Source of the DNA: Vicinamibacterales bacterium
GTDB lineage: Bacteria > Acidobacteriota > Vicinamibacteria > Vicinamibacterales > 2-12-FULL-66-21
Reading direction: 5' to 3'
NCBI GenBank assembly: GCA_036556425.1
Contig: DATBJJ010000006.1
Location: forward strand, 4,266-68,265
DNA: 64,000 nt
Shown piece after piece: positions 28,160 through 64,000 of the stretch (its first letter is position 1; each line of letters opens with the position of its first letter). A program made the position numbers and the translations under genes. Under the pieces are notes generated by a model. That model ran no database searches and was not told where the DNA came from. It worked only from the letters and a program-made list of their open reading frames with translations.

Positions 28160-28201
28160 TGGATTTCGTCGGCGTACGCTTTGACCGAAAGGTATGCGTC
28201 G

Positions 28202-31369: not shown

Positions 31370-31374
31370 GCAAT

Positions 31375-47993: not shown

Positions 47994-48024
47994 GCGCAGG
48001 TCGTCGCGTGTCCCACCGCCGCGC

Positions 48025-48688: not shown

Positions 48689-50035
48689 CTACCGTACGAG
48701 ATGCGCTTCGAGCACAGGCTTCGCGTAAGCGGTAATAGCCGCGTAGCCTGCCGGCGTGATGTGGCTGCCGTCTTCGTTCGTGAACTCGCGGCGCCGTCGT
48801 CCTCCCTCTTCGGCGAGCGCGTTGTGGAGATCGAGCACGAGAAGGTTCTTCTGCTTGGCAAAGTCCACGAGCCACCGGTTCGTGGCCATGACGTGCCGGT
48901 TGATGACGTCCTGATACGCTTCCTTCCCCATCACCCAGCCGATCCACGATCCGATCGTCTCCGACCATGAATCTTTCGGCCGCACGGTGACTTCGGTCGC
49001 GAGAATCGTCTCGATTCCGCTGGCGTGCGCCTGTTCGACCATGCGCGTGTAGTTCTTCCGCACGCGCTCCGTCGCGGCATCCGACTCGGTCGGCGCCGCG
49101 CGGAAGATATCGTTGATGAAGCCCCAGATGATCACGGTCCGCGGATTCGCGGCGACCACGTCGCGGTCGAACCGGCCGACGAGCTCCGCCGTCTGCTCGC
49201 CGGCAACGCCGCGATTGATCACCTCGACGCCCGACAATGTCCTGAGATCCCAGTTCTTCGCGTACGACGCGCCGAGCAGCACGATCGGCCGGCTCGGCGT
49301 CTTCGGCGTCTGCTGCGGATTCATTCCCGACGTCGGTACCATCGCGATTCTGCTCTCGTGGCTCTCGTTACGGTTCGTGGCGTCCGCGCCTTCTTTGATC
49401 CACCCGCGCCAGCGGTAGTACGACAGCGCGAGGAACTCGCGCATGCCGGCCGTCAACATCGAGACGTTGTCGGGATGGCCTTCGTAAATCGGTACGGACG
49501 CGCGCTCGACGTCGAACCCGAGCGAGGCGAAAACCCCCGCGGACCTCCGCATGTGGAGGCGATCGGTGACGAGGAGCACACGCTGCGCGCCGATCTGCCG
49601 CAGCATGGGCGCGCTGCGCTCTCCGTTCTGGCGAGTGTTGTACGAGTTCGACTCCACCAGCACGTTCGAGGCGGGCACGCCGAGCTCGCGCGCGAGCTGC
49701 GCCATCGCGACTCCGACCGGACAGGACGGCCCCGTGCCGCCGCCCGTGAACACCATCACCGGCGCTCGCCCCTCGCGCCAGACGCGGACCCCGAGGAGCG
49801 TTCGACGAACGCCGTTCTGGTTGGGAACGCATTCCCCGACGACGCCCGCGCCCAGCACGACGATCGCGTCGGCCTTGCCTGCGGTATCGCTCGCGAGCAG
49901 CGGGCTGATCAAGTAGTCCGCCACGGTCGTGCGGTTGATCGCGAGGCGGCCGAAATAGACGGCCGCCAAACCGCAGACGAATCCGGCCGCGAAGCGATGA
50001 CGCCTGACGAATCCTGCGATCGATCCAATCTTCAT
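48689..50035 (-). CDS. fusion protein: DUF218 (YdcF/ElyC-like) domain plus SGNH hydrolase domain
   Basis: ORF 48689..50110 trimmed to MKIGSIAGFV.... The DUF218 core is AIVVLGAGV...VFTGGG...NTRQN...VTDRLHMRR. The C-terminal half has a GDSL-type layout (LLGASYAKNW...GVAGE...WGFINDI). Confidence 0.7.
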   Translation of the reverse strand: MKIGSIAGFVRRHRFAAGFVCGLAAVYFGRLAINRTTVADYLISPLLASDTAGKADAIVVLGAGVVGECVPNQNGVRRTLLGVRVWREGRAPVMVFTGGGTGPSCPVGVAMAQLARELGVPASNVLVESNSYNTRQNGERSAPMLRQIGAQRVLLVTDRLHMRRSAGVFASLGFDVERASVPIYEGHPDNVSMLTAGMREFLALSYYRWRGWIKEGADATNRNESHESRIAMVPTSGMNPQQTPKTPSRPIVLLGASYAKNWDLRTLSGVEVINRGVAGEQTAELVGRFDRDVVAANPRTVIIWGFINDIFRAAPTESDAATERVRKNYTRMVEQAHASGIETILATEVTVRPKDSWSETIGSWIGWVMGKEAYQDVINRHVMATNRWLVDFAKQKNLLVLDLHNALAEEGGRRRREFTNEDGSHITPAGYAAITAYAKPVLEAHLVR

Positions 50036-50096
50036 GCGGCGGCGCTCTGTTGCCCGAACCGGCTGATCATGTGTCCCAAGTTGCGCCGGGAGCGAC

Positions 50097-51467
50097 TCAC
50101 GCCACAGCATCTCGCTTCACCACCGCTCTTTCGCCGTCGCGCGCGAGCGCACCCGATCGCGGCACGTCGGACCGGCATCCAAGGATGAACTCGTAGTCGG
50201 CCCGGAACCGCGCACGGCACGACGGATCCTTGTACGCCAGGTTTGGCGAATTCGTCTTTTCGACGATCCCTTCCGTGTAGCGTCCGCCGGCCGAGGTCAC
50301 CGCGCGCGCCAGCGCGTCGTTCAGGATCCGCGTCGCGTTCGCGCTGCCCGTATGCTCGAGGACCCACTCGCGCGGCGTGAACCGGTCGTAATGGTCGATC
50401 ATGTCCACGATCTTCGCCGGAAGCTCAGCGTCCGAGGCCAACACACCGGTCGACGCGTTGATGCGGCTACGCGCGCCCCCGATCGTCTTGTCATAAACGA
50501 TCGCGGGGACGCCGGCGAACATCGCCTCGACGAGGGCTTTGTTATCCCCTTCTTTGCGCGACAAGAACACGAACACCTTGCTCTGGCTGACGTGCGCGGC
50601 GACCTCGGTCGGCGGCAGGTTCTCGATGATGTCGAGGTGCATTCCCGGCGGTCCGAACCGTTCGGCTTCGCGGCGCACGTCCGCGGCGGTCCGGTTCGCC
50701 CACGCAAATCCGATCAGCAGCACACGCACCTGGCGGTCGCGAATCTCGTGCAGCGCGCGAAAGAGCTGCGCATGGCGCTTGTGCGGCGCCCAGTTGGCGA
50801 CCATCACGAGGTCGTACGACTTCTTCTCTGCTGCGGGCTTGAAGAGGTCAGCGTCGACCCAATCCGCCGGCCCAAGCCGGATCGGGACGAGCGGCCCACC
50901 AGTCTCCGCGACGAATCGATAATCCTCTTCGGTGAAGCATTGCACGAGCACCGGATTGCCCGGTGCGATGTACATCAGCAAGCTTGGATCACAATAGCCC
51001 GCCCAGCACGGCTCGAGGACGAACGTGTAGCGCTTCATCAGCCGCGGCAGGTCGAACATCGACGCCACCGCATTGAACGTCCTGACGTACTTCAGCAGGA
51101 TCACGCCTTTCTCTTCGGCGGTCGCGCGCTTCAAGACGATCAGGTCGCGCCAGAGATCGTGCGGACCTTTTCCAGTCAGCGCGTACAGCGAGGCGCACGC
51201 GGCCGACGCGGGGTCGGCCCGGTACGAGTCGAGGACGACGTTCCTTGGTTCGCGGCGGAGCGTCGCAATCGTCTCGTTCACGACGCGCTCGGCTATACGG
51301 CCGAAGGGCCCGACGTTGGAGACGCGCGTCACCCAACACAAATCGCCGAGCGCGCGATACAGATTGCCGCTGCCGAGCGCCATCCGCCCGCGCGTCGTCA
51401 TCGCGGCCGCGATCAATCCGCGTGCGGCGCGATACTCGAAGACGGCTTCCTGCAGGGACCGAGTCAT
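50097..51467 (-). CDS. glycosyltransferase (GT-B, GT4-like C-terminal half) with a divergent N-terminal domain
   Basis: ORF 50097..51677 trimmed to MTRSLQEAVFEY... (an ATGA overlap). C-terminal motif: VFVFLSRKEGDNKALVEAMFAGVPAIV. Confidence 0.65.
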   Translation of the reverse strand: MTRSLQEAVFEYRAARGLIAAAMTTRGRMALGSGNLYRALGDLCWVTRVSNVGPFGRIAERVVNETIATLRREPRNVVLDSYRADPASAACASLYALTGKGPHDLWRDLIVLKRATAEEKGVILLKYVRTFNAVASMFDLPRLMKRYTFVLEPCWAGYCDPSLLMYIAPGNPVLVQCFTEEDYRFVAETGGPLVPIRLGPADWVDADLFKPAAEKKSYDLVMVANWAPHKRHAQLFRALHEIRDRQVRVLLIGFAWANRTAADVRREAERFGPPGMHLDIIENLPPTEVAAHVSQSKVFVFLSRKEGDNKALVEAMFAGVPAIVYDKTIGGARSRINASTGVLASDAELPAKIVDMIDHYDRFTPREWVLEHTGSANATRILNDALARAVTSAGGRYTEGIVEKTNSPNLAYKDPSCRARFRADYEFILGCRSDVPRSGALARDGERAVVKRDAVA

Positions 51468-52288
51468 CGCGCAGACCGAGGTTGCTTCTTCTCGAAAACC
51501 AGGAGGTTGCCGAACGCGGGACCAGGCAGACGCACGAAACGGAACCAGACGTCGTTGGCGGCGTGAATCGCGCGGCGCACGGGACGCCACGGCATGAGCG
51601 CATACATCTCCGTGAACTGACCGGAGCGGCGCGTCTTCAGCGCGAGACCGAGCCTGTCGCATTCGGCGACGAACCACTTCATATCGAGTTGGCGCGTCAG
51701 CAGCGTTCCCTGCGGCGTCGCCTCGTGGGACTCGAGCCCGGCTGGAACGCGCTCGACGCGCGCTCGCCCCTTGCCGAGTATCCGCTTCAGCCCTCGCAGC
51801 GCGATCGACTGCGCCGAATACATGTTGCCCTCGCTCAGCACGAGCTTTCCGCCTGGTGCGAGCACCCGCGTCAATTCAGAGAGGGCGCGGTGAAGCTCGG
51901 GCACGTGCATGAGCACGCCCCAGCACACCGCGTACTTGAACTGACCGTCCTCGAACGGGAGACGAAGGAGATCGCCCTGCCGCAGCGTGATCTTGTCGTC
52001 GAGCCCACGCGCGTGAATGGTCTTCTTCGCGAGATCCAACGCGTTCTGCGAAAAATCGGTGGCCACCACGTGAAAGCCGCGCGCCGCGAGCAGAACGGAT
52101 TTCGCGCAGCTCCCGCAGCCCGCGTCGAGAATCGTCGACCCGGCCGGAGCGCTCAGCTCGCGCGCAATCGCATCGAACGCGACCTCGTAGAAGCCCTGCG
52201 CTTCCGGCGTCCGATACATCGAGACCCACTGCTCGTGGATCGCGGCATCGGCAAGCGCATCACGCACGACGTTCGGAGCGCTGCTCAT
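51464..52288 (-). CDS. class I SAM-dependent methyltransferase
   Basis: ORF 51464..53332 trimmed to MSSAPNVVRD... (an ATGA overlap). Motif I: ILDAGCGSC. Confidence 0.8.
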   Translation of the reverse strand: MSSAPNVVRDALADAAIHEQWVSMYRTPEAQGFYEVAFDAIARELSAPAGSTILDAGCGSCAKSVLLAARGFHVVATDFSQNALDLAKKTIHARGLDDKITLRQGDLLRLPFEDGQFKYAVCWGVLMHVPELHRALSELTRVLAPGGKLVLSEGNMYSAQSIALRGLKRILGKGRARVERVPAGLESHEATPQGTLLTRQLDMKWFVAECDRLGLALKTRRSGQFTEMYALMPWRPVRRAIHAANDVWFRFVRLPGPAFGNLLVFEKKQPRSAR

Positions 52289-54339
52289 GCCGCCCTCGAT
52301 CCAGCCGGCGCCTGCGCGCGGCGGATCGCCTCGGCGGCAAGCGTGGCGTCGTACTGTTCGGACGAGAATGCGGCCGCCAGGTCGATCGGGTTCGCGCTGC
52401 GCAGCAGGATTCGCTGCGCGAGCTTCGCAATCGGCGACATCACCGACAGCACCCACGCAGGCATCCACACGGCCCTGAGATCGGGACGCTTCTCGAGCCA
52501 CAGCGCGAGCAGCTTCGCGCGCGTCGGCGCCTCGGGCTCGACAAGGTTGACGATCGTCGGCATCGAATCGAAATTCTCGACTCCGCCGCGAATCACCTGC
52601 GCGGCCGTGCGCACGTCGCAGAGGCTGAGTCCGCCCGACTTCGGACCGATCGCGAGGAAGATCGGACCCAGCTCGCGACCGAGGCGGCCTGGCGGCTCGT
52701 ACGCCTTGAAGTCGACGAGCGGTCCCGGCCGCACGACGCGGATTCTCAGACCCAGGCCCGGACCCCGCTCGAGCACTTCGCGCTCGGATTCCGCCTTGGC
52801 CCACACGTACGGTCCGCGCGCGAGGTTGTCGCGATCGACCGGGCTCCTCTCCGTCAACGGCCCGCCGACGACTTTGCTCGGCTTCAGGACCGCAATGCTG
52901 CTGACGTGCAGGAAATTCCTGACGCCCGCGGCGGCCGATGCGTCGAGGAGGTGGCGCGTCGCGGCGATCGTGTTCCGCTCGTGAGCGTCCTTCCCGCCGG
53001 CCGTCTCCGCCGCGCAATGCACGACCGTCGATACTCCGGCGAGCAGGCCCTTCTCGAGTTTCTGGCTCAGATCGGCGGCGACATACTCCACTCCCGCTTC
53101 CTGCGCCGACGCGGGTGGCACACGGCGTCCAACCGACCGCACCGACCAGGCATGCCGCCGCAAGTCGCGGACGACCGCACGTCCGAGCGTTCCGTTCCCG
53201 CCGGTCACCAATACCACGCCGCGGGTCGGATCCGTTGGCGGCAGCTGACGCTTCCGTTCCGCGAGCTCCACTTCCGCGCGGCGCTCGCGCTCGGCGTCGG
53301 CAGCGCGCAGCGTTTGGCCGATCTCTTCGCACACGCGGACGGTGTCGAGGATCGATTCCGGCGAGAGCGGCGGCTTCGTCCCGTGACGGATGCTCTCGTA
53401 GAACGCGTGCGTCAAATCGCTGAGCCCCGGATATCCCTTCTTCTTGCCGAAGAGATGCGACGCGAAGCCTTTCGTCGATCCGATGATGATCTGCTTCGCC
53501 TCGCGATACGGATTCGACACGAGGGAAATCGCGGATGCGCCGGCGCCGGCCAAGTTCGTGAGCGCGCCGCGCACGAAATCCGCGCGAAGGCAGCCGTTCG
53601 TGCCGACGACGCGCAAATACGATTCGATTGGCCGGCCGCGCAGCGTCACGATCAGCACGCCGGTCGCCTCACCGGCCTTCAAGATGGCGTGAACTTCTCC
53701 CTCGGCGCGAACGTGAATCGACGTGAGCTCGGGCGACGCAAGCGGGTCGCACGCGCGCAGCGCGTCGAGCAGCGTGTAGACGGGGTGCGGCAGAATGTCG
53801 AGCAGCTGCTCGATCGGCGACATCAGCGACCGTCCGTCGCGAGACTTCCTCACGGTCCGGAACGAGAAATAGCTCTCCACGTGAACGACGCGTCCGATGA
53901 GGTTCAGCGACGCGGTCAACCCGCGCGCCGGCGCCTGATAGAGGAGCTGGTGTCCGGCGCACACCGAACGCTCCGCTCTCGCCGCCGTCTCGAGCACGTC
54001 GCGCGCATCCGCCGTCGTCAGCGTGAACGGCTTCTCGACATAGACGTGCGCGCCGTGCGAGAGGCACAGCTTCGCGAGCGGCGCGTGGGATCCGGGCGGC
54101 GTGGCGATGTGCACGACGTCGGGATGGACGGCCTCGAGCATCTCGGACGCCGACGCAAACCATCGAACGTCCTTCGACAGGACCGACGGCAGCTTCTCCG
54201 GGTTCGCGTCGGGATCGGCGACGGCGACGATGCTCGCGCCGGGGCACGCCTGTATCGCGCGCGCGTGGTGGATGCCCATCTTGCCGCAGCCGACGATGGC
54301 GATCTTCAAGGGAGCGGCGGGGCCGCGTTGAGTTGACAT
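52285..54339 (-). CDS. bifunctional fusion: Gfo/Idh/MocA oxidoreductase (N-terminal) plus NAD-dependent epimerase/dehydratase SDR (C-terminal)
   Basis: 684 aa with two Rossmann motifs: IAIVGCGKMG at the N-terminus and VLVTGGNGTLG around residue 385. Confidence 0.85.
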   Translation of the reverse strand: MSTQRGPAAPLKIAIVGCGKMGIHHARAIQACPGASIVAVADPDANPEKLPSVLSKDVRWFASASEMLEAVHPDVVHIATPPGSHAPLAKLCLSHGAHVYVEKPFTLTTADARDVLETAARAERSVCAGHQLLYQAPARGLTASLNLIGRVVHVESYFSFRTVRKSRDGRSLMSPIEQLLDILPHPVYTLLDALRACDPLASPELTSIHVRAEGEVHAILKAGEATGVLIVTLRGRPIESYLRVVGTNGCLRADFVRGALTNLAGAGASAISLVSNPYREAKQIIIGSTKGFASHLFGKKKGYPGLSDLTHAFYESIRHGTKPPLSPESILDTVRVCEEIGQTLRAADAERERRAEVELAERKRQLPPTDPTRGVVLVTGGNGTLGRAVVRDLRRHAWSVRSVGRRVPPASAQEAGVEYVAADLSQKLEKGLLAGVSTVVHCAAETAGGKDAHERNTIAATRHLLDASAAAGVRNFLHVSSIAVLKPSKVVGGPLTERSPVDRDNLARGPYVWAKAESEREVLERGPGLGLRIRVVRPGPLVDFKAYEPPGRLGRELGPIFLAIGPKSGGLSLCDVRTAAQVIRGGVENFDSMPTIVNLVEPEAPTRAKLLALWLEKRPDLRAVWMPAWVLSVMSPIAKLAQRILLRSANPIDLAAAFSSEQYDATLAAEAIRRAQAPAGSRAA

Positions 54340-54381: not shown

Positions 54382-56217
54382 TTAACAACGGAACGTTTCG
54401 CGCCACGTGCAGAGATTGAGCGCGGTCCACAGGAACTCGGAATGGTCGCGCGCGCCGGAGCGATGCTCGGCGATGAGCCGCGTGAGCGCGGGCCGATCGA
54501 ACACGTCGGCTGCCGGGCTTTCCGCGAGCCCGCGGATGCGCTCGCCCAATCCGTCGTGCGCGCGGAACCATCGCGCAAGCGGCACGCCGAAGCCCGACTT
54601 GCGCCGATCGACAATCGCCTGCGGCAGCGCGCGCCGCGCGACGTCTTTCACGACCGCCTTGCCGGACCCGAGCCGGACTTTGTGCTCCGTCGGCAGGCGA
54701 TTGGCGAACTCGACGATCCGGTAATCCATGAACGGCACGCGCGACTCGATGCCGGCCGCCATGCTCATCTTGTCCTGCCGATGCAGGATCGACACGAGGA
54801 ACGTCTCCTGATCGAGCAGCGACAGACGTCCCACGCCATCGAGTCCCAGGCCCGCGCTGCCCTCGAGGCATTCCCGGCGATATTCCGCCCCGAACGCCGG
54901 CAGACCCGGGGCCGCTTCGGCCACGAGATCGGGACGCAGATAGCTCGAGTTGTACAGGAACACGTCCTCGCGCGAGGCCGACGCGTAGCGATCGAGCTTG
55001 TGCAGGCGGTGATCCTTGATCCACGCGAGCAAGAACCGTCGCATCGGCGCGGGCACGTTGCGGTACGAGTCCGCGAGGCGAGGAATGCGGTACCGCGGAT
55101 AGCCGGCGAAGAGCTCGTCCGATCCCTCGCCTGTCAACACGACGGTCACGTGCTGCTTGGCGAGCTTGCTGAGCGCGAAGATGTGGACCGAGTTCGCGAA
55201 ATCCAGCGGCTCGTCGTTGTGCCACACCATCCGCGGAAAGAGCTCGTCGAACTCGACGTTGCCGACGCGGAGTTGGTGGTGAACCGTGTTGTACTTCTTC
55301 GAGACCATGAGCGCGAACGCGCTCTCGTCGAAGTCCGTCTCGTCGAAGCCGACCGAGAACGTGTTGACCGCGTCGCCCTTGATCTTCGCGGCCAACGCCG
55401 TCACGAGGCTCGAGTCGACGCCGCCGCTGCAGAACGTGCCGACGGGAACGTCGCTGATCAGACGCATCCGCACCGAATCCTGCAAGAGATCCGACAGCGT
55501 GCGCGTCGCTTCCTCGAATCCAATCGCGGGACGCTCGGGCGACGGCCTCGGCGACCAATAACGCGTGATGCGCGGACGCCCGTCGCGAACCGTCATCGTG
55601 CATCCAGGCGGCAGGCTTCGAATCCCGCGGAACAGCGTCTCGGTACCCGACACCTGTCGGAAGAGCAAGTACTCGCTCAGCGCTTCTTCGCGGCACTGCG
55701 CGGCAACCTTGCCGCTCTTCAGAATCGACTTGATCTCCGATCCGAACACGAAGGCTTCGGGCGTCTCGGCGTAGTAGAGCGGCTTGACGCCCATCCGGTC
55801 GCGCGCCAGGAACAGCGTCCGATGTTCCGTGTCCCAGATGGCGAACGCAAACATGCCGTTGAGCGCCTCGACGCACTTCTCGCCGCGCTCCGCGTACAGA
55901 TTCAGGATGACTTCGGTGTCGCTGTTCGAGTGGAACGCGAAGCCCTTCGCGACGAGCGCTTCGCGCAGCGGACGATAGTTGTAGATCTCGCCGTTGAAGA
56001 CGATCCACAGCTTGCGCCGGACGTCCTGCATCGGCTGGTGGCCGCCGGACAGATCGATGATGCTCAGACGGCGGAAGCCGAGACCCACCGGACCATCGAT
56101 GAAGTTGCCCGCGTCGTCAGGACCGCGGTACGAGATGATGTCGCGCATCGCCGTGACGAGCTCGGGCTCGCACGGGTGCGACGGATCCTTGTAAACCAGT
56201 CCCGCTATTCCGCACAT
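54382..56217 (-). CDS. asparagine synthase (glutamine-hydrolysing) family amidotransferase, copy 2 (exosortase-adjacent)
   Basis: ORF 54382..56376 trimmed to MCGIAGLVYKD.... PP-motif: SGGVDSS. Confidence 0.9.
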   Translation of the reverse strand: MCGIAGLVYKDPSHPCEPELVTAMRDIISYRGPDDAGNFIDGPVGLGFRRLSIIDLSGGHQPMQDVRRKLWIVFNGEIYNYRPLREALVAKGFAFHSNSDTEVILNLYAERGEKCVEALNGMFAFAIWDTEHRTLFLARDRMGVKPLYYAETPEAFVFGSEIKSILKSGKVAAQCREEALSEYLLFRQVSGTETLFRGIRSLPPGCTMTVRDGRPRITRYWSPRPSPERPAIGFEEATRTLSDLLQDSVRMRLISDVPVGTFCSGGVDSSLVTALAAKIKGDAVNTFSVGFDETDFDESAFALMVSKKYNTVHHQLRVGNVEFDELFPRMVWHNDEPLDFANSVHIFALSKLAKQHVTVVLTGEGSDELFAGYPRYRIPRLADSYRNVPAPMRRFLLAWIKDHRLHKLDRYASASREDVFLYNSSYLRPDLVAEAAPGLPAFGAEYRRECLEGSAGLGLDGVGRLSLLDQETFLVSILHRQDKMSMAAGIESRVPFMDYRIVEFANRLPTEHKVRLGSGKAVVKDVARRALPQAIVDRRKSGFGVPLARWFRAHDGLGERIRGLAESPAADVFDRPALTRLIAEHRSGARDHSEFLWTALNLCTWRETFRC

Positions 56218-57476
56218 ATCTCGCTCTGCTCTCTCTTCGTCCGTACCACCGTCAGCCCATCCGCACGGCCGCGCACGACGCGCTCGAGTATCTCGACCGT
56301 CGTCGTGATGTCGCTCGGCCTGACGAGCGCATGCGTGGGAATCGTCAGAACGCGTTCCGCGACCGATCGGCCGCAAGGAGCCGGCGCCGCTCCACCGGCG
56401 AATGCCGTCTGCAGCGCCGGAACGTCGACGAGCGATGAGGGATACGACGCCGTCGCGCCAATGCCAGCGGCGACGAGCGCCTCGAGCGCGCGCTGCCGCA
56501 CGTCACGATTCGGTAACAGCACCGGGAAGCGCAGGTAGACCGGCGTCGCGCCGTTGGTCACACGGATCGACTGCACGCCGGGAACAGCCGTCACGCCTGC
56601 GAGAATCGACGCCGCGTTCTCGCGCCGCGCGCGGTTGAACTCATCGAGCCGCTTCGTCATCGTGACGCCGAGCGCAACCAGCGGACGGCTCGGCCGCTCC
56701 ATCGGGAAATCCGTCGTGTAGACCGTCTTGCCGAGGCCGAGCTGCGGAATGCTGTTTGGAATCCAATACAGCGCCGGCCGGAGCATCAGCGAATACACGC
56801 ACGCTTTCATGACGCCGCTGACGGACTCGGTCAGCGGCGGCGCCGCCAAGCTCGCGTGCTCGCGATCGAGCGCGGACGCCAGGCGGTCCGAGCTCGTGAC
56901 GACCATTCCGCCATCAATCGCCGCGACGTTCTTACCTTTGTCGAAGCTGTAGAGGCCCGCGTCGCCCCAGGTCCCCGACGCGCGCCCACCGACGGCCGCC
57001 CCCATCGCCTGCGCGGCATCGTCGACGAGAAATGCCCCGTGCTCGCGCGCGATATCGGCAATCGCCGGAAGATCGTTTGGGAGCCCGTACAAGTTCGTCG
57101 CCACGACAGTCATCACACGGCGGAAATCAGTCCGCCGCAGCTGGTCGAGGTCGTAATCCAACGTGTCCGCCCGGATGTCGACGATGCGCGGGCGAAGGCC
57201 GGCTTTGACGACCGACGCGGCGACCGAAAAGCACGTGTACGACGGAAGCACGACCTCGTCGCGATCGCCGGACGCGAGACGGCGCATGGCTCTCAGCAGC
57301 AGCGTCAGACCCGCGCGGCCGGTCGACGTCAGCAGCGCGTGGCGCACGCCGAATCGATCCTGGAACGCGCGGCGCAGAGTCGCGCCGACGTCCGCTCCAG
57401 AGACGACAAGCGCCGCCGCGCGCGCGAGATCGATCGCGCGAATCGGAGCGCCGGCGGGAGCAACGTGTCGAGGCAT
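56205..57476 (-). CDS. DegT/DnrJ/EryC1/StrS-family PLP aminotransferase
   Basis: ORF 56205..57746 trimmed to MPRHVAPAGAP.... Features: DDAAQAMGA, and the PLP-lysine context YSFDKGKN. Confidence 0.85.
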   Translation of the reverse strand: MPRHVAPAGAPIRAIDLARAAALVVSGADVGATLRRAFQDRFGVRHALLTSTGRAGLTLLLRAMRRLASGDRDEVVLPSYTCFSVAASVVKAGLRPRIVDIRADTLDYDLDQLRRTDFRRVMTVVATNLYGLPNDLPAIADIAREHGAFLVDDAAQAMGAAVGGRASGTWGDAGLYSFDKGKNVAAIDGGMVVTSSDRLASALDREHASLAAPPLTESVSGVMKACVYSLMLRPALYWIPNSIPQLGLGKTVYTTDFPMERPSRPLVALGVTMTKRLDEFNRARRENAASILAGVTAVPGVQSIRVTNGATPVYLRFPVLLPNRDVRQRALEALVAAGIGATASYPSSLVDVPALQTAFAGGAAPAPCGRSVAERVLTIPTHALVRPSDITTTVEILERVVRGRADGLTVVRTKREQSEICAE

Positions 57477-58501
57477 TACGGAATGCTGCGCGCGATGAAC
57501 GGGCCGATCACCTGGGTCACGGGAACGGGAAGCTGCTGCCACGCCCGAATCGCGAGGCGATACTTCGGGTTCGCGACGTTCAATTGCGGGATGTCGCGCC
57601 GCGTCCTCAGCACGTACTGCCAATACAGTTGGAGCGGCTTCGCATTCCACTTTTTCTTGAAGACTTCCCCGCCGGATTGCACCGTCGAGCGTCCCAGGTG
57701 GAAGCGCGTCATGCCGCGCTCGCACGCGCCTTTGATGAGCTCCCAATACAGCACGTATCCGGCGTACTGACTCCGGAATTTGCCGCGCGATCCGAGCCAG
57801 AGTCCCTCAGCCGTTTCCCCATGGAGCATGTCGAGCGATGCGGCGGCCGGCTCGGTGCCGGCATAGACCACGCACAGGCGTGTCGCTTCGGGAAATGTCG
57901 CGGCCACCGTCTCGAGGTAGCTGCGCGAGTAGATCGGCGTTCCGAGATCCCGCCAGCTCTCCGACAGGACCGCGTAGAAATCCGGAATCAGCTCCGCGCC
58001 GCCGATACGCGCGGTGAGTCCGTTCTTGTAGCCCTTGCGGATATCCTGACGATGCGAGCTCGAGAACTTTTTCCAGAGGACGTCCGGATCCTTGTTCAGG
58101 TCCAACGTCATGCTGACCTTGTGATCGGAGGACGGAAGACCGTCGAGGAATTTGCGGCTGCGAATCTCGACGTAGTCGACGCGCCACTCGTCCGCGATCT
58201 CGCTCGCCTTCGCAATCAACACCCGCTCGATCTCCGGCGTCGACGCGCACGGCCCGCCGAAATTCACGAACGGAAGCGAGCACGCGATGTTGCCGAACAG
58301 TCGGCTCTGCACGCGCACGATCGGAAAGACACCCGCGATCCGATCGCCGTCGAGCGCCGCCAAGTACGCCGAGCGATGCCCGAAGCATTGCTGGTTGACG
58401 CGCCGCCACTCGTAGCGGTGATAAAGCGATGCGCCGTCCGCCGTGTCGACGAACGCGTTCCATGCATCGCGATGCGAGTCGTCGCAGTTGATGATCTTCA
58501 T
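57476..58501 (-). CDS. FemAB-related (GNAT-fold) peptidyl/aminoacyl transferase, PEP-CTERM-system type
   Basis: ORF 57476..58585 trimmed to MKIINCDDSHRDAWNAFV..., 341 aa. It has the family-typical SLYHRYEW opening and sits directly downstream of the exosortase. Confidence 0.8.
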   Translation of the reverse strand: MKIINCDDSHRDAWNAFVDTADGASLYHRYEWRRVNQQCFGHRSAYLAALDGDRIAGVFPIVRVQSRLFGNIACSLPFVNFGGPCASTPEIERVLIAKASEIADEWRVDYVEIRSRKFLDGLPSSDHKVSMTLDLNKDPDVLWKKFSSSHRQDIRKGYKNGLTARIGGAELIPDFYAVLSESWRDLGTPIYSRSYLETVAATFPEATRLCVVYAGTEPAAASLDMLHGETAEGLWLGSRGKFRSQYAGYVLYWELIKGACERGMTRFHLGRSTVQSGGEVFKKKWNAKPLQLYWQYVLRTRRDIPQLNVANPKYRLAIRAWQQLPVPVTQVIGPFIARSIP

Positions 58502-58529
58502 GCTCGTTCCGTATGTCTTCGATCGCGCG

Positions 58530-60113
58530 TCAGTGAGCGCGGCCCGGCAAATGAGGGCCGAGGGCCTCGTGCACGAGCGCCGCAAGCTCCGAGAGATCGC
58601 GCGCGCGCGCGCGATCGTCCTCGCCAGCCGTCGGGTTGTTCGACCGCGCCGGGGTCGAGAGCGCGACGACCGCGCCGTTGGTCCGGCCCTGCGCGAGCGC
58701 GTTCCAGATCGTCCGAATCTTCGCGCCGGATGCGCTCAATTCCACGGCGTCGTTCATCTCGTACCAGAAGAACACGTCGCGAGGATCCTGCCCCGCGACC
58801 TTTTCGGACGAGGCGCGAACGAGGTTCGCGTCGAATTCCGCGCCTCGCGCATCGGCGACGCGAACGCGCTCGGCCCGGCGGTGCAGATCCAGCGTCCTCG
58901 ATCCGGCGACCTCTTTGCTCTGCGACTGCGTCTCGAAGTACGCGATGTAGACGTCGATCGCGCGCCCGTTGCTGCGATAGCTGCGGCGAAGCTCCGCGTC
59001 GGCGCCGCGCCACAAGTCGCGTGGCCAAGACTTGGGACCGCCGAACGGACTCGCCTGCCATGTTCCGAGCGTCGATGGAAAACTGTCCAGACCTGCGGTC
59101 AGCGGCACGGGCCGCGGCTCGCCTGCGAGAACGCCCGAGCCGAACCCGATGAACACGAGCAGACAGGCCAGCGCCTCGGCGCGGGGCAGCCGCACCGAGA
59201 AGCCTGACGTAGGGGTCGCTTTCGCCGGACCGCCGCCGCGCGCGCGGTCGAGGTCCGCGTCGGGCCGCGGCTGCTCCAACCATCGAAGGCCGGCGAACAA
59301 CACGACGAATCCAATACCCGACACGAACAGACCGTGGAGCACGTGAAACGGCCCGTGCAGCGGCGAGCCGATCTCGAAGTGCGCCAGCACGCCAATCAGC
59401 GCGACCCGTAGACCGTTCGAGAGCGCCGCGATCGTGACAGCGGACACGATGAGCACGGCGCGGCGCCAGAACCCCCGCAGGTAGACATAGGACAGCGGAA
59501 GCCCCAGGGCGAGCACGGCGACCAGATAGTTGATGCCGCTGCACGCGCGAGCGACCTCGAGCGTCAGACCCGGAAGCTCGATGAACGTGCCCTCGCGATG
59601 CGCGGGGATTCCAACCGCGTGCAGGATTGCCACGCCAATCCCGGCGGACCGCTGCTGGAACGGCCAGTGGAGCGACTCGGTGAAGCCGTCCCAGAGGGGC
59701 ACCATCAGCAGCAGGTACGCGAGCGCAGCCCATGACGCTCGCACATACGCCAGGCCGAAGAGCAGCAACACGATGCCGACGAGAGACACGAGAAACGCGA
59801 GCTGCTCGAGAACCTGCAGACCGCCCGCTTTCCCGATCGCGAGAAGACCCATGCCTCCCAGGAGGACGAGCGCAGCCAAGCCGCGAGACGGCCGCGGCGA
59901 CAACGTCCGCAGGACGTCGCGGCGAGACCACGCGAGGAAGGCGGCGACGATCGGCACCATGAATCCGTACGAATACATCGGGCTGACCGACCATTGCCGG
60001 ACCATCGCGGCCAGCGGCGCACGGTGCGCGAACACCGAGGCGGCGCACAGCACGATCGCCACGACGATCTCCGCGCGGGGTGCGCGAACGGGTTCTACGG
60101 CGCGTGCGATCAA
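58530..60113 (-). CDS. xrtA: exosortase (XrtA-like) fused to a C-terminal EpsI-family domain
   Basis: Exosortase core: polytopic, with ARACSGINYL (catalytic Cys context) and LSNGLRVALIG (Arg), then HGLF. The C-terminal roughly 200 aa is a soluble domain of EpsI type (FPSTLGTWQA...IDVYIAYFETQ...NGAVVALS). I propose the start at TTG 60113-60111, giving a TTGA overlap with the upstream stop. The ORF maximum is 60230. Confidence 0.85.
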   Translation of the reverse strand: MIARAVEPVRAPRAEIVVAIVLCAASVFAHRAPLAAMVRQWSVSPMYSYGFMVPIVAAFLAWSRRDVLRTLSPRPSRGLAALVLLGGMGLLAIGKAGGLQVLEQLAFLVSLVGIVLLLFGLAYVRASWAALAYLLLMVPLWDGFTESLHWPFQQRSAGIGVAILHAVGIPAHREGTFIELPGLTLEVARACSGINYLVAVLALGLPLSYVYLRGFWRRAVLIVSAVTIAALSNGLRVALIGVLAHFEIGSPLHGPFHVLHGLFVSGIGFVVLFAGLRWLEQPRPDADLDRARGGGPAKATPTSGFSVRLPRAEALACLLVFIGFGSGVLAGEPRPVPLTAGLDSFPSTLGTWQASPFGGPKSWPRDLWRGADAELRRSYRSNGRAIDVYIAYFETQSQSKEVAGSRTLDLHRRAERVRVADARGAEFDANLVRASSEKVAGQDPRDVFFWYEMNDAVELSASGAKIRTIWNALAQGRTNGAVVALSTPARSNNPTAGEDDRARARDLSELAALVHEALGPHLPGRAH

Positions 60114-61663
60114 GGGAGTACCGGACGTCCGAGCGCTTTGCGCGCCACCTTGCCAGAGCCCGTACGCGGCAGCGCGTCGACAATCTCGACCCACTTCGGC
60201 ACCATGAAGTCCTCGAGTGCCTGCGCGCACTGGCGCAGCACGTCCTGCTCGGTGAGCGGCGAGGATCTCGTCACCGTCACGAACGCCTTGATCGCTTCGC
60301 CGAGCACGGGATCGGGCACGCCGATCACCGCGGCCTCGGCCACTCCAGGAATCGCGTGCAGGACGTTTTCAATCTCGCGCGGGCTGACCTTCTGCCCCCG
60401 GCTCTTGATGACATCGTCGGTCCGCGACTGGAAGTACATGAACCCATCGTCGTCGATGCGGAAGATGTCGCCGGTGTGGAGGACGCGCTCGCCCGGCAGC
60501 AAGCCGGGCTTCAGGACGCGAGCCGTATCCTCGGGCGATCGCCAATAGCCCTGCATGACGTTCGAACCGCGGACGACGAGCTCGCCGATGCCGTGATCCA
60601 TCCGCCGCCCCGCTTCGTCGACGAGATAGACCTCGACGTTGCTCATGGCCTTGCCGACCGATCCGGGCCGCGCGTCGATCTCGGCGGGATCGAGATATGA
60701 CACGCGCTTGCATTCGGTCAGTCCGTACATCGAGAAAATGCGGACGTGCGGCAGGCGCTCGCGCAGCGTGTTGATGTGCGCGGTCGGCAGTGCCGCGCCC
60801 GTGTTCGTGACGTAGCGCAGCGACCTCAGTTCGTACGCACCGAGATCGAGCTTGAGGAGCAGCGCGGCGATCATCGGAACGATCGGCAGCGCCGTCACGC
60901 CTTCGCGGACCATCAGATCGAGCAGCGCCGTTGGATACGCGAACGACCGCTCGAGCACCAGGCGGGCGCCGGCGTTGAACGCGAGAAAAATCTGATACAG
61001 GCCGTAGTCGAACGACAACGGCAGCACGTCGAGAATCACATCATTCGGCGTGTTGCGAAGGTAGTCCTGAATCGAGCTCGCGGCAGCGACCATGTTCGCG
61101 TGCGTCAACATGACGCCCTTGCCGCGGCCGGTGGACCCCGACGTGTAGATCAACGCGGCAAGATCCTGATCGATCGGGCGGCGGCGATCCGCTGCGTCGG
61201 CGGGCGGCTCAGTGCTCGCGAGCGCGGCGAACCAGACGATCGGATGACGCTCGATCCCGATATCCCCAGTGCACTCTCCCACCAATACGACCGCATTCAA
61301 CGCGCCGCATTTCGAGACGGCATCCGTCACGACAGGGAGCGCGCGCCGATCGCTGACGAGCACGCTGGCTTCGCAGTCGTTGAGGAGATACAGGAGCTTG
61401 TCGGCTTTGACGGTCGGGTTGACCGGCACGAACACGGCTCCGGCCTTCAGCGCGCCAAAGATGGTCAGCACCGCCTCGACGCTGTTCTCGAGGTGCACGA
61501 CCACGCGGTCTCCGCGGCCGACGCCGAGTTGGCGCAGACCGTCGGCGACGCGATTCGCCGCGTCGTTCAGCTCGCGATACGTGAGCCGGCGCGTACCGCA
61601 GACGAGCGCCTCGCGGTCGGGCGTCTGCCGCGCGCTCGCTTCGAGGCCGCTGTTAACCAGCAA
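60110..61663 (-). CDS. AMP-dependent acyl-CoA/acyl-ACP ligase (ANL family), copy 2 (exosortase-adjacent)
   Basis: 517 aa with YTSGSTGRGKG, GYWRSPE, TGDIFRID and GKVARK. Confidence 0.9.
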   Translation of the reverse strand: MLVNSGLEASARQTPDREALVCGTRRLTYRELNDAANRVADGLRQLGVGRGDRVVVHLENSVEAVLTIFGALKAGAVFVPVNPTVKADKLLYLLNDCEASVLVSDRRALPVVTDAVSKCGALNAVVLVGECTGDIGIERHPIVWFAALASTEPPADAADRRRPIDQDLAALIYTSGSTGRGKGVMLTHANMVAAASSIQDYLRNTPNDVILDVLPLSFDYGLYQIFLAFNAGARLVLERSFAYPTALLDLMVREGVTALPIVPMIAALLLKLDLGAYELRSLRYVTNTGAALPTAHINTLRERLPHVRIFSMYGLTECKRVSYLDPAEIDARPGSVGKAMSNVEVYLVDEAGRRMDHGIGELVVRGSNVMQGYWRSPEDTARVLKPGLLPGERVLHTGDIFRIDDDGFMYFQSRTDDVIKSRGQKVSPREIENVLHAIPGVAEAAVIGVPDPVLGEAIKAFVTVTRSSPLTEQDVLRQCAQALEDFMVPKWVEIVDALPRTGSGKVARKALGRPVLP

Positions 61664-61928
61664 TCTGCGCTCCCTGCGCCTCGAGCTTGCGGGACACGAA
61701 CCGCGTCACGTTGTCGACCGAATCCAGATTCTCGGGCAGAAGCTCGCGATCGGCGACGGCGATGCCGAACCGCTGCTCGAGGAACGCCACGAGCTCCAAC
61801 ACGCCGGTCGAGTCGATGATGCCGTTCTCGAGAAACGACTGGTCGTTGGTGATCGAATCCCCGTTCTGGCCGAACAGGAAGTTCGTGACGACGAATTCCT
61901 TGATTTCCGCTGCAATCATGTCTGCCAT
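61653..61928 (-). CDS. acyl carrier protein
   Basis: 91 aa with the phosphopantetheine-attachment context GIIDSTGVLELVAFLE. Confidence 0.85.
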   Translation of the reverse strand: MADMIAAEIKEFVVTNFLFGQNGDSITNDQSFLENGIIDSTGVLELVAFLEQRFGIAVADRELLPENLDSVDNVTRFVSRKLEAQGAQIAG

Positions 61929-62071
61929 GGTCTGTTCCCGACTCCTAGGTGACGGGGCGCCGGAGATCGGCGGCCCCCGTGGTACACAGCTTCGCCCTTT
62001 CAGTTACAGGGGTGCGCGTGCGGCACACGCCCCGCGGACCGCATTGGGGGAGCTGACTGGCCTCTGGACTG

Positions 62072-62087
62072 AGCAAGGACCCTGCCC
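62072..62087 (-). promoter_or_regulatory. candidate sigma-54-type promoter (minus strand) GGGCAG-GGTCC-TTGCT
   Basis: The plus strand reads agcaaggaccctgccc at 62072-62087. GG-N10-GC with a perfect TTGCT -12 element, about 145 nt upstream of the ACP start. Confidence 0.4.
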
Positions 62088-62217
62088 GCTCAAAGGTGCG
62101 CGCGAAGGCTGCTAAGGTGCTCAATTTGTGAGACTTCCTGTCGATATGCCGGTCCGAGGCCTCCGGCATGGGCCAAAAGTCATTGATTACGAAGACAAAA
62201 GTCGTTAATTGGAAGAC

Positions 62218-63216
62218 CTAAGTCTGCTGCAGCGCGCCTGCCGTCACGAGGATTTCGGCGCTTTCGAGGGCATTTGCCCGCGCCAGCACCTCTCCAACGG
62301 GGCCGAATCTGAACTCCGACAGCAGCCGCTCGAGCCGCGCCTGGGTCTTCGACAGGTTGCGATAGTGCCGCATCCGCGACAGCCCGCCTGACGCGATACG
62401 GGGCTGATCCGGGTCGATTTCCCAGGGATGCAGGTAGAACACCGCCGGCTGCCGCTCCGTCGCGTTCAGCCGACCGATCCCATGCCGCGTCCAGGCATAC
62501 GGGAGAATTCGGAAGTACCCCCCGCCGCCGATCGGGAAATTGGTCGATCCAAACCGCACCGTCGACCCTGGCAGCTCCCACAATCCACCGGAGGGCGTCT
62601 CGATGCGCTGAATCTGCCGCGGCCAATCCGCGATGCCGTAGCGATCGTGGTGAACCGGGTAGATGCTCGCGTCGTACGCGTAGCCCTCGGCGATCAACAC
62701 GTCGAGGGCCCACAGGGACTTCCGCGTGATCGAGTAGCTCGGGGCGCGATAGCCGAGTACGGGGACGCTTGCCGCCGCCTCGATCGCGACGCGCGCGCGG
62801 CGCAGATCGTCGCGGAACTCCGACGGCGTCATCGAGTACACGAGCCGGTGGCTGTATCCGTGCGACGCGATCTCGTGTCCGCCTTCCGCGATCTGCCGCA
62901 CGAGTCCGGGAAATCGATCGGCCACCCATCCGAGCACGAAGAACGTCGCCGTCACGTCCGCGTCGGCGAACATCTCGAGCAGCCGCTCGGTGTTCCGGCA
63001 CACGCGGCTCTCCAGGCGATCCCACTGCGCACGCGGGACGCGATCTTCGAACGCCGAGACCTGGAAGTAGTCCTCGACGTCGATCGTCATCGCGTTCACG
63101 ACGCGGGCGTCCCCCGTCGAATCAGGATCGCCACCGCCTTCGACCAGCGGTGTAACACGAAATCCAGGCGCCGGGGCAAACTCCATCAATGCGCGGCCGT
63201 TGTGCAGGAGTGACAT
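62218..63216 (-). CDS. polysaccharide deacetylase, exosortase-system type (CE4 plus DUF3473-like C-terminus)
   Basis: 332 aa (MTIDVEDYF...FFVLGWVA...HEIASHGYSH). Confidence 0.85.
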   Translation of the reverse strand: MSLLHNGRALMEFAPAPGFRVTPLVEGGGDPDSTGDARVVNAMTIDVEDYFQVSAFEDRVPRAQWDRLESRVCRNTERLLEMFADADVTATFFVLGWVADRFPGLVRQIAEGGHEIASHGYSHRLVYSMTPSEFRDDLRRARVAIEAAASVPVLGYRAPSYSITRKSLWALDVLIAEGYAYDASIYPVHHDRYGIADWPRQIQRIETPSGGLWELPGSTVRFGSTNFPIGGGGYFRILPYAWTRHGIGRLNATERQPAVFYLHPWEIDPDQPRIASGGLSRMRHYRNLSKTQARLERLLSEFRFGPVGEVLARANALESAEILVTAGALQQT

Positions 63217-63229
63217 GAGCTGCTGGTCC

Positions 63230-64000
63230 CTAGGAACCGCGACGCACGAGTACCGTCTTCAGCGTTTCCAGACAGATGAACAGATCGAACGCGATCGAGA
63301 TGTGCTTGATGTAGAACAAGTCGAACTGCAGCTTCTGCAGCGCGTCCTCGACCGACGATCCATAGCTGTGCCGCACCTGCGCCCAGCCGGTGAGGCCGGG
63401 TCGAACGACGTGGCGCTGACCGTAGAACGGAATCTGTTCGGTGAGGTTCGCCACGAACTCCGGCCGCTCGGGACGCGGGCCGACAAAGCTCATGTCCCCT
63501 CGCAAGATGTTCCAGAGCTGCGGAATCTCGTCGAGCCGCGTGCGCCGGAGGAATCTGCCGACCGGCGTCACGCGAGGATCGCCGGCCGTCGACCAGACGA
63601 CGCCCGTCTTCGCCTCCGCGTCGGGCCGCATCGATCGGAACTTGTGGATCATGAACGTACGGCCATCCTTGCCCACGCGCCGCTGGTGATAGAGCGCGGG
63701 GCCCGGCGACGTCGCACGGATCGCGATGGCGATGAGGACCAGGAACGGCGCCGCAAGTAGAAGCCCGAACGACGCGACGAGCACGTCGAGGACGCGCTTC
63801 GCGCCCGACAGCACGCGGCCCTTTCGGAACCCGTCCGAGAAGATCAACCAGCTCGGTCGCAGGTTCTCGACGGCGATCTTTCCGGTGTACTGCTCGTAGA
63901 CCGATGCCAGGTGATCGAACTGCACGCCGTCGATCAGCTTCATCTGCAGCAGAGCGCCCATCGGCAGTTTTCCTCGGGCGTCGGCCAGGCTCACGACCAC
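63230..64000 (-). CDS. polyprenyl-phosphate glycosyl-1-phosphate (priming) sugar transferase, 5' end outside window
   Basis: C-terminal catalytic domain of the bacterial sugar transferase family (KRVLDV...RVGKDGRTFMIHKFRSM...DEIPQLWNILRGDMSFVGPRPERPEF...PGLTGWAQV). Confidence 0.9.
   Translation of the reverse strand: MVVSLADARGKLPMGALLQMKLIDGVQFDHLASVYEQYTGKIAVENLRPSWLIFSDGFRKGRVLSGAKRVLDVLVASFGLLLAAPFLVLIAIAIRATSPGPALYHQRRVGKDGRTFMIHKFRSMRPDAEAKTGVVWSTAGDPRVTPVGRFLRRTRLDEIPQLWNILRGDMSFVGPRPERPEFVANLTEQIPFYGQRHVVRPGLTGWAQVRHSYGSSVEDALQKLQFDLFYIKHISIAFDLFICLETLKTVLVRRGS

Follow-up and report, generated by a model that had tools for sequence, protein, structure and literature searches.

A conserved exosortase W operon of Vicinamibacterales and a possible aminoacyl-sugar pathway for PEP-CTERM protein sorting

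We analysed a stretch of 64,000 nucleotides (nt) from a soil Vicinamibacterales bacterium (Acidobacteriota; assembly GCA_036556425.1, contig DATBJJ010000006.1, positions 4,266 to 68,265), hereafter the window, and within it a block of six genes built around an exosortase. The block is a real, conserved, co-directional operon and not a chance arrangement. It belongs to a known, mechanistically unsolved class of system, as an exosortase W (XrtW) type with a DegT-family aminotransferase and, abutting the exosortase, a VinN-like ligase and carrier-protein pair. We tentatively favour a reading in which the operon builds an amino-acid-decorated amino sugar on a lipid-linked precursor, the free amine of which would be the most likely acceptor for XrtW. 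Exosortases and PEP-CTERM proteins occur widely among bacteria of soil, sludge and water, where flocs and biofilms depend on them for cohesion. To our knowledge, neither the attachment target of processed PEP-CTERM proteins nor the role of the conserved neighbour enzymes has been demonstrated since 2006.

Nearly all of the window, which is 64–67% G+C, is one very large exopolysaccharide (EPS) locus that encodes glycosyltransferases, a flippase, a Wzy-like/O-antigen-ligase-like protein, deacetylases, carbamoyltransferases, methyltransferases and an ATP-grasp enzyme. Gene families were assigned by NCBIfam and Pfam scans against curated cut-offs, and junctions were read by inspection of start codons. 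All six genes of the block were recovered by the family scans on the minus strand, where an initial annotation, made from the sequence without database searches, had placed them. In order of transcription they encode a carrier protein (acyl carrier protein, ACP; 61653–61928, 91 amino acids (aa)), a ligase of the ANL superfamily (60110–61663, 517 aa), an exosortase::EpsI fusion (58530–60113, 527 aa), a FemAB-like protein (57476–58501, 341 aa), a DegT-family aminotransferase (56205–57476, 423 aa) and an AsnB-family amidotransferase (54382–56217, 611 aa). The ACP and ligase genes overlap by 11 nt, the ligase stop lies on the XrtW start in a 4-nt overlap (TTGA), FemAB and DegT overlap by 1 nt (TAATG) and DegT and AsnB by 13 nt; the only gap within the block, of 28 nt, separates the exosortase from FemAB. 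The genes are thus as tightly coupled as had been claimed, although the 42-nt gap quoted as the upper limit is the junction to the next gene, a Gfo/Idh/MocA::short-chain dehydrogenase/reductase (SDR) fusion (52285–54339, minus strand; Pfam GFO_IDH_MocA and Epimerase) that starts 42 nt past AsnB. On the other side, also on the minus strand, are a carbohydrate esterase family 4 (CE4) polysaccharide deacetylase (62218–63216; TIGR03006, Pfam Polysacc_deac_1 and DUF3473) and a polyprenyl glycosylphosphotransferase (63230–64000; TIGR03025), whose gene is cut by the window end.

No sigma-70 promoter-like sites were found inside the six-gene block, and the search for terminators returned only two hairpins there, both within coding sequence, fewer than in shuffled sequences and neither convincing. 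For a 6-kb contig of identical sequence, independent gene calling at the Joint Genome Institute (JGI) placed the deacetylase, ACP, ligase and exosortase boundaries and the start of FemAB at the same positions, and the exact 527-aa XrtW protein is called in the JGI data. The exact FemAB sequence is held at NCBI as a protein from a Vicinamibacterales metagenome-assembled genome (MAG), named after TIGR03019.

The exosortase scores 462.6 bits against the XrtW model NF038142 (cut-off 425; model positions 3–477 of 494) and 194.6 bits against the XrtA model TIGR03109, under the cut-off of 208. The curated cut-offs therefore rule out the XrtA assignment that had been proposed for it, and by these scores the protein is an XrtW fused to a C-terminal EpsI. 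The EpsI model TIGR02914 (73.9 bits, cut-off 42.8) and the superfamily signature TIGR04178 (50, cut-off 23) both pass, and Pfam recognizes Exosortase_EpsH and DUF3485/EpsI in the fusion. Residues Cys191, Arg236, His253, His257 and His260 are invariant in 15 homologues. Homologues bear the name ‘exosortase W [Vicinamibacterales]’, and those from Nitrospira, Manganitrophus, a delta-proteobacterium and Luteitalea also score as XrtW, while more distant gamma-proteobacterial relatives from the same scan are XrtA (TIGR03109, 297–338 bits). XrtW is predicted to be a membrane cysteine peptidase or transpeptidase for PEP-CTERM proteins; a literature search on XrtW returned no relevant paper.

Three PEP-CTERM genes in the window encode its predicted substrates. 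The first (11598–12284, plus strand) matches Pfam PF07589 and ends in VPEPATLLLMGCAGLLFARQRRR; the second (27995–28870, plus strand) combines an Lcl_C domain (PF07603) with PF07589 and ends in VPEPTTLAFLGVGLAGFLSRKRRI; the third (48025–48675, minus strand) has a signal peptide (N-terminus MARWSKVVVVLVWMLLCVGARPASA) and the tail VPEPMTLLLLAPAAAGLAIRRRR, with no NCBIfam match. Just upstream of the first, a 92-aa open reading frame (ORF) at 11256–11534 (plus strand) closes with a PEP-like motif, after which come a hydrophobic stretch and basic residues (AAPEPVWMMVWGVGLLALASGVRSFLVRRH); it gives no standard PEP-CTERM match.

To place the operon among its relatives, the window proteins were mapped by tblastn onto 80 loci (numbered with the prefix L) from a scan of one genome per species. 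The counts below compare 32 XrtW loci with adequate flanks (Acidobacteriota, Nitrospira and others) with 16 XrtA loci, within a range of 10 kb. The deacetylase is present in 28/32 XrtW loci and 10/16 XrtA loci, and the glycosylphosphotransferase stands upstream of it in 27/32 XrtW loci. FemAB occurs in 27/32 XrtW loci, directly after XrtW in 25, and in 10/16 XrtA loci. DegT was found in 23/32 XrtW loci, directly after FemAB in all 23, and in 0/16 XrtA loci. The ACP and ligase pair is present in 22/32 XrtW loci, always directly upstream of XrtW or of a cassette abutting XrtW, while among the XrtA loci the ACP was found in 0/16 and the ligase in 1/16. An AsnB-type gene accompanies 22/32 XrtW and 9/16 XrtA loci, and the Gfo/Idh/MocA::SDR fusion 5/32 XrtW loci. 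The complete six-gene order is seen in 6/32 XrtW loci, with sub-blocks recurring in most.

Three main arrangements were seen among XrtW loci: that of the window, one that lacks ACP, ligase and AsnB, and a Nitrospira type with the order ASNB2-ACP-LIG-LIG2-NadE-XrtW-FemAB-DegT. XrtA loci are ordered deacetylase-FemAB-XrtA-glycosyltransferase-AsnB, with the deacetylase-FemAB pair abutting XrtA in 10/16. Outside the exosortase flanks, EPS gene order varies freely among loci. The view of the module as a functional unit around an exosortase is borne out by this synteny, which is kept across phyla. In its make-up, however, the module is composite, since FemAB and DegT occur with or without the ACP and ligase, and the pair tracks AsnB-type genes: 20 XrtW loci have both, two the pair only, two AsnB only and eight neither (Fisher p ~2e-4, uncorrected for phylogeny). 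DegT is kept in four, and FemAB in several, of the 10 XrtW loci without the pair. The module thus consists of a deacetylase/exosortase/FemAB core that is also found in XrtA loci, an XrtW-specific DegT and a facultative carrier cassette. The same synteny rules out DegT as a replacement for the pyridoxal phosphate (PLP) decarboxylase of XrtA systems, as had been suggested: it adjoins FemAB in 23/23 loci, and not the ligase.

The first set of genes has the appearance of an amino-sugar pathway. The glycosylphosphotransferase passes TIGR03025 (320 bits, cut-off 296) and reaches 372 of the 393 bits required by the XrtA/PEP-CTERM-type model TIGR03013, on a truncated protein; it is predicted to start a lipid-linked glycan. 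With 392.9 bits against TIGR03006 (cut-off 276), the deacetylase is a cytoplasmic CE4 enzyme of the XrtA-system family and the counterpart of VimE, discussed below. FemAB passes TIGR03019 (316.1 bits, cut-off 260) and has zero sequence matches to solved structures. Its AlphaFold model (mean predicted local distance difference test (pLDDT) score 91.4) gave Weissella FemX as the top hit in a fold search (template modelling (TM) score 0.72, E 2e-15), followed by FemA, two aminoacyl-tRNA-dependent peptide synthases solved with streptothrisamine (an amino-sugar-type acceptor) and MprF aminoacyl-phosphatidylglycerol synthase domains, with coenzyme A (CoA)-dependent enzymes of the tandem Gcn5-related N-acetyltransferase (GNAT) fold lower in the list. 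FemX, FemA, these peptide synthases and the MprF domains all take their amino acid from aminoacyl-tRNA. FemAB, a VimA-like tandem-GNAT transferase, is predicted to add an amino acid to a sugar amine; going by fold similarity to tRNA-dependent enzymes, aminoacyl-tRNA is probably the donor.

DegT scores 174 bits against Pfam PF01041, and its Schiff-base lysine motif SFDKGK is kept in all orthologues. Its solved relatives are mixed, led by TlmJ (97 bits), with several other sugar aminotransferases above WbpE (77 bits). DegT is predicted to be a PLP aminotransferase aminating a keto-sugar, an assignment that stops short of equivalog level and of a sugar position. The Gfo/Idh/MocA::SDR fusion, which has generic similarity only to WbpB/WlbA structures, is a candidate source of that keto-sugar.

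The second set of genes centres on the carrier protein. This matches Pfam PP-binding at 26.1 bits, carries a DST serine motif and finds its best solved relatives among peptidyl carrier proteins (PCPs; 2my5), PigG and DltC, with no match to any exosortase-specific model. It appears to be of the stand-alone peptidyl-carrier type, and the aminoacyl unit that had been envisaged on it is upheld as probable. The ligase scores 502.1 bits against TIGR03098, under the cut-off of 592, yet this is its best-scoring family. It has the ‘FD’ motif of non-ribosomal peptide synthetases (NRPSs) and not the acyl-CoA-synthetase motif. The best solved match to its pocket core is VinN (3WV4) with 84 bits, all others reaching 51 bits or less. 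The substrate of VinN is 3-methylaspartate or aspartate, which the enzyme activates as a beta-amino acid and transfers to the stand-alone carrier VinL. The specificity of VinN is ascribed to D230, F231, S299, K330 and R331 together with a shortened beta13–beta14 loop (review PMC11253843), one residue shorter than in the adenylation domains for alpha-amino acids. These residues align without gaps with D219, Y220, T288, K319 and R320 of the ligase, the loop is as short as in VinN, and the resulting DYTKR code is invariant in 27/27 ligase orthologues (Acidobacteriota, Nitrospira). LgrA was rejected as the nearest relative: its top rank came from summing three domain hits, whereas over the best single stretch it reaches 183 bits and VinN 264, and its alignment needs insertions.

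The ligase therefore looks like a VinN-type adenylation enzyme, predicted to load an Asp-like or beta-amino acid on the carrier protein; ‘Asp-like’ is as fine as the sequence would resolve its substrate. The resemblance is not to a fatty acyl-CoA ligase, and the TIGR03098 family name ‘acyl-CoA ligase’ may be misleading. In locus L080 (17708–20541), the gene of a bona fide XrtA-type TIGR03098 ligase (695 bits), whose pocket code is DYTFR, runs into the start of a TIGR03099 gene (551 bits) resembling diaminopimelate (DAP) decarboxylase. VinN/VinL/VinO and the beta-alanine starter pathway (PMC10662134) are arranged likewise. The L080 ligase/TIGR03099 pair parallels VinN/VinO and suggests that the XrtA cassette makes a beta-alanyl-carrier protein. 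Family scans found no TIGR03099 PLP decarboxylase among the window ORFs, in agreement with the absence reported for this locus. What the window has is AsnB: it passes TIGR01536 (489 bits, cut-off 267), scores 496.6 bits against the XrtA/PEP-CTERM amidotransferase model TIGR03108, under the cut-off of 817, and begins MCGIAG, leaving the catalytic Cys2 intact. It is predicted to be a glutamine-dependent amidotransferase converting a carboxylate to an amide.

Forty kilobases from the module, on the opposite strand and beside a PrsT tetratricopeptide repeat (TPR) gene, lies a detached cassette (14826–19386, plus strand) of an NAD-synthase-like PP-loop gene (14826–15818), a second AsnB (15713–17833) and a second ligase (~17830–19386). 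The latter lacks the amino-binding Asp, keeps an Arg and resembles malonyl- and oxalyl-CoA synthetases. No second ACP was found in the window by tblastn. The detached cassette and the module probably serve one pathway, because the carrier protein is the only one in the window and the two gene sets are contiguous in Nitrospira XrtW loci. Two tandem NodU-like carbamoyltransferase genes (19387–23372, plus strand) follow directly past the second ligase, and an SGNH esterase-like gene (23851–25002) comes after them.

Three conserved blocks, all on the minus strand, lie in the 289-nt gap that precedes the carrier-protein gene. A candidate sigma-54 (-24/-12) promoter, GGGCAGGGTCCTTGCTC, with exact GG-N10-GC spacing, is located at 62071–62087, and the element is kept at the aligned position upstream of the ACP in six other Vicinamibacterales loci. 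The bare sigma-54 consensus occurs no more often in the window than chance would give (17 found, 18 expected), so that the candidate rests on position and conservation. PEP-CTERM genes are known to depend on RpoN, with which a sigma-54 promoter would fit, and the operon is probably transcribed from a promoter of this type in front of the carrier-protein gene. A leader motif, TGTAACTGAAAGGGCGAAGCT (61988–62008), comes after the candidate promoter and before the ACP start; it was found once in the window against 0.01 expected, and also upstream of the ACP in L001, L006, L007, L008, L009 and L015. This 21-nt motif was seen upstream of a Gfo/Idh/MocA gene in L043 as well. The third block, ‘GACTTTTGG’ (~62170–62200), is common to related Vicinamibacterales loci. 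A consensus fold of eight ACP leaders gave only three pairs with no covariation, and there were no Rfam matches in the window.

The closest parallel to this set of enzymes is in type IX secretion, where cargo C-termini are amide-bonded to 2-N-seryl-3-N-acetylglucuronamide, with a glycyl substituent in Tannerella (Veith et al. 2020, PMC7468200). There, WbpA, WbpB, WbpE and WbpD make a di-N-acetylated uronic acid, the CE4 deacetylase VimE takes off an acetyl group, the choice of amino acid falls to VimA (a TIGR03019 match) and formation of the uronamide to the AsnB-like WbpS (Veith et al. 2020, PMC7468200). The same authors noted deacetylase/FemAB/AsnB clusters beside exosortases and proposed, as speculation, that they make the acceptor (Veith et al. 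2020, PMC7468200). The acceptor idea is therefore not new, having been published as a hypothesis. The remark of the initial annotation that the chemistry was yet to be established holds for exosortase systems, as a 2025 paper still calls the PEP-CTERM attachment target unknown.

Gene identities, family scores, synteny, conservation of the pocket residues and the FemAB fold are what the data show; from them, and by analogy with these pathways, we infer each chemical step of a two-branched scheme, along with the FemAB donor and the link to XrtW catalysis. The first branch would follow Wbp/Vim logic, its members being the deacetylase, the FemAB-like protein, DegT and possibly the Gfo/Idh/MocA::SDR fusion. 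The sugar, nucleotide- or lipid-linked, would be started by the upstream glycosylphosphotransferase, and its amine uncovered through de-N-acetylation, put in place through oxidation and transamination, or both; FemAB, with its FemX-like fold, would then aminoacylate the amine, probably from aminoacyl-tRNA. In the second branch, the ligase would use the side-chain carboxyl of an Asp-like amino acid to attach it to the carrier protein, and the AsnB-type (and NadE-type) enzymes may amidate the carboxylate that remains free; at the same point, XrtA systems would decarboxylate to give beta-alanyl-ACP. The beta-aminoacyl unit would be handed to the glycan. XrtW could then cut the PEP-CTERM signal and resolve the acyl-enzyme on the free amine of the decorated sugar. 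We favour a direct link to sorting because the ligase and FemAB persistently flank the exosortase while the order of other EPS genes varies. A bolder form of this scheme, which we consider unlikely, makes XrtW a true transpeptidase that would link PEP-CTERM proteins to the free amine of a beta-aspartyl-derived (isoasparaginyl-like) or aminoacyl substituent, carried by an amino sugar of the lipid-linked polysaccharide and supplied by a carrier pathway with the logic of macrolactam starters; here the XrtA cassette would yield beta-alanyl-ACP and the XrtW lineage would amidate instead.

Several points weigh against this scheme. Exosortases have never been demonstrated to act by transpeptidation and not by simple cleavage (2025 paper). 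Within 10 kb, the ACP and ligase are missing from 10/32 XrtW loci and AsnB likewise from 10/32; therefore neither is obligatory for sorting, unless encoded elsewhere in those genomes. The co-occurrence statistics take no account of phylogeny, and many of the loci are from Nitrospira. No transferase that would unload the carrier protein was identified. A WbpA-like 6-dehydrogenase and a WbpD-like N-acetyltransferase were not found among the window ORFs, and could be elsewhere in the genome, and neither DegT nor the oxidoreductase is a specific match to WbpE or WbpB. The ligase has Tyr for Phe at 231 and Thr for Ser at 299 (VinN numbering), both conservative substitutions in the VinN-type code. 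Finally, the source is an uncultured MAG.

The main alternative, which we regard as a serious if somewhat doubtful possibility, is that the enzymes only decorate the EPS, modifying its repeat unit with N-aminoacyl or N-acyl amino sugars and amides, while the exosortase is merely co-regulated and XrtW releases PEP-CTERM proteins or attaches them elsewhere. This would suit a window that is one very large EPS locus, and it would suit the facultative nature of ACP, ligase and AsnB. Related loci also carry other carrier-protein cassettes at the same place, such as a prolyl-PCP dehydrogenase set with an SGNH::carrier fusion, which has the look of variable glycan decoration. Against this alternative count FemAB abutting the exosortase in 25/32 XrtW loci and the deacetylase-FemAB pair abutting XrtA in 10/16, where other EPS gene order varies; the overlap of the ligase and XrtW genes; and the product of the homologous Vim/Wbp enzymes, which is specifically the sortase acceptor in type IX secretion. 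A sortase acceptor and an EPS modification, the two outcomes first put forward for this locus, both stay live options. In some Vicinamibacterales XrtW loci, namely L002 (13899–19508; equivalent to L005) and L007, DegT and AsnB are separated by an added set of type II NRPS-like genes. These encode a PigA/RedW-like prolyl-carrier-protein dehydrogenase (452 bits), an SGNH::carrier fusion of 605 aa and a DltA-like adenylation domain, and hint at a pyrrole-2-carboxyl-type decoration.

A linear version of the pathway was implied by the initial annotation, with ligase, FemAB and AsnB working one after another on a single acyl or aminoacyl intermediate tethered to the ACP, and FemAB drawing its donor or acceptor from the carrier. 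The three enzymes do share an operon with the ACP; phosphopantetheine thioesters are ligands of GNAT folds, which makes aminoacyl-S-ACP a chemically plausible donor, and CoA-dependent enzymes appear further down the tandem-GNAT fold list for FemAB. The nearest FemAB folds, on the other hand, are all aminoacyl-tRNA users. FemAB and DegT in XrtW loci, and FemAB in XrtA loci, are found with no ACP or ligase within 10 kb, and AsnB tracks the ACP and ligase (an AsnB-type gene in 20/22 loci with the pair versus 2/10 without) and not FemAB. One tethered unit made by all three enzymes is thus a poor fit, and we think it improbable. A lipid anchor, whereby the carrier and ligase would feed an acyl chain into an N-acyl amino acid or similar lipid, as put forward for XrtA-linked N-acyl amino acid synthases, that anchors or accompanies PEP-CTERM proteins by analogy with archaeosortase lipidation, is less probable still: N-acyl amino acid synthases have been linked to PEP-CTERM/exosortase loci (Craig et al. 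2011, as cited in PMC4897644), the nearest ligase family is named ‘acyl-CoA ligase’ in NCBIfam and weak alpha/beta-hydrolase homologues of hydr1 and hydr2 occur in the window, but the window ORFs yielded no homologue of an N-acyl amino acid synthase, the ligase pocket has the amino-binding Asp and carboxylate-binding Lys-Arg of VinN with no fatty-acid tunnel signature, and the carrier protein is closer to PCPs than to fatty-acid ACPs.

The claim that the locus has the full gene set usually listed for XrtA bar the decarboxylase stands in part. FemAB passes its family cut-off; the ligase (502/592) and AsnB (497/817) fall below theirs, the ACP matches no exosortase-specific model, and the two hydrolases said to belong to the module lie outside it. 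These are a weak hydr2-like gene (47175–48098, minus strand) 6 kb beyond the AsnB end and a weak hydr1-like gene (30380–31540, minus strand) 23 kb beyond it, both below cut-off. As for the neighbour families attributed to Haft and colleagues, Haft 2006 includes the PF01522 polysaccharide deacetylase among correlated neighbour families and does not mention FemAB, ACP, ligase or decarboxylase, the associations of which rest on the family definitions.

Further gene pairs were noted elsewhere in the window. The hydr2-like alpha/beta-hydrolase sits beside an ATP-grasp enzyme (45982–48098 together, minus strand), just downstream of the PEP-CTERM gene at 48025–48675, and the same pair is found in L008. 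A PaaK/DVU_1553-like AMP-ligase and a DVU_1556-like methyltransferase (31800–34706, minus strand) are flanked by the hydr1_PEP-like hydrolase at 30380–31540 and another methyltransferase at 29405–30199; a PaaK-like gene is also present in XrtW loci L014, L017 and L036. A DUF218/ElyC-like::SGNH/GDSL fusion (48689–50110, minus strand) is kept after a glycosyltransferase family 4 (GT4)-like gene (50097–51677) in the closest XrtW loci, L006 and L009. Outside the EPS locus, positions 1–9776 encode holA, leuS, a histone-deacetylase-family protein, a response regulator, a YvcK-like protein and a GGDEF diguanylate cyclase; a sigma-54 activator in this region gave no PrsR-level match (268 vs 503).

The value of the locus lies in specific, testable biochemistry rather than in lack of precedent. 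Together with its relatives, it sorts exosortase neighbours into separable branches with concrete biochemical predictions: an Asp-type carrier ligase that now goes under the wrong name of acyl-CoA ligase, a FemX-like aminoacyl transferase that partners a sugar aminotransferase, and a split between amidation in XrtW and decarboxylation in XrtA systems. If the favoured scheme is true, exosortase sorting would be linked mechanistically to the linking-sugar strategy of type IX secretion, and if its bolder form proves right, this would be the first definition of anchor chemistry in the exosortase family. If the scheme fails, the genes would be ordinary polysaccharide-decoration enzymes.

Among known systems, DltA/DltC D-alanylation and AlmE/AlmF/AlmG glycine addition to lipid A both use a dedicated carrier to decorate an envelope glycopolymer. 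The window shares with them an adenylation enzyme and a small dedicated carrier, and DltC is among the solved relatives of the carrier protein; its ligase, however, is closer to VinN than to DltA, and family scans of the window detected no DltB-type membrane-bound O-acyltransferase (MBOAT), DltD or AlmG-type acyltransferase. The likeness to VinN/VinL/VinO and FlvN/L/O, which make beta-amino-acid starter units for macrolactam antibiotics, lies in a stand-alone adenylation enzyme beside a stand-alone carrier, with D230, an aromatic residue at 231, S/T299, K330, R331 and the short loop all kept, and XrtA-type loci repeat the order of ligase followed by a DAP-decarboxylase-like PLP enzyme. In contrast to those pathways, the window has no polyketide synthase (PKS), VinK-type acyltransferase or VinM-type alanyl ligase, has AsnB-type amidotransferases instead of the decarboxylase, and its product is presumably destined for a glycan and not a polyketide.

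XrtA systems (Haft et al. 2006) resemble the window in having an exosortase with EpsI inside a large EPS locus, with PEP-CTERM proteins among its products. The PrsT TPR (328 vs 312), TIGR03006 and TIGR03019 models pass, and an AsnB-type enzyme, a carrier and a related ligase are present. The window differs in its XrtW::EpsI fusion, which fails the XrtA cut-off, in lacking the TIGR03099 decarboxylase, and in its ligase, AsnB, stp1, stp2, O-antigen-ligase-like protein and both hydrolases, which all fall below XrtA-family cut-offs. DegT fixed by FemAB, and ACP and ligase abutting the exosortase, are features seen in none of the 16 XrtA loci. Relative to the Wbp/Vim pathway, the window has the additional carrier-protein and adenylation pair, and XrtW belongs to the inner membrane whereas the sortase PorU is in the outer membrane. 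The two are alike in their enzyme types, with CE4 (VimE), TIGR03019 (VimA), DegT (WbpE/PorR), Gfo/Idh/MocA (WbpB) and AsnB-like (WbpS) proteins in the window, four or five of the seven Wbp/Vim types; the Wbp/Vim product serves as the amine acceptor of a C-terminal sortase.

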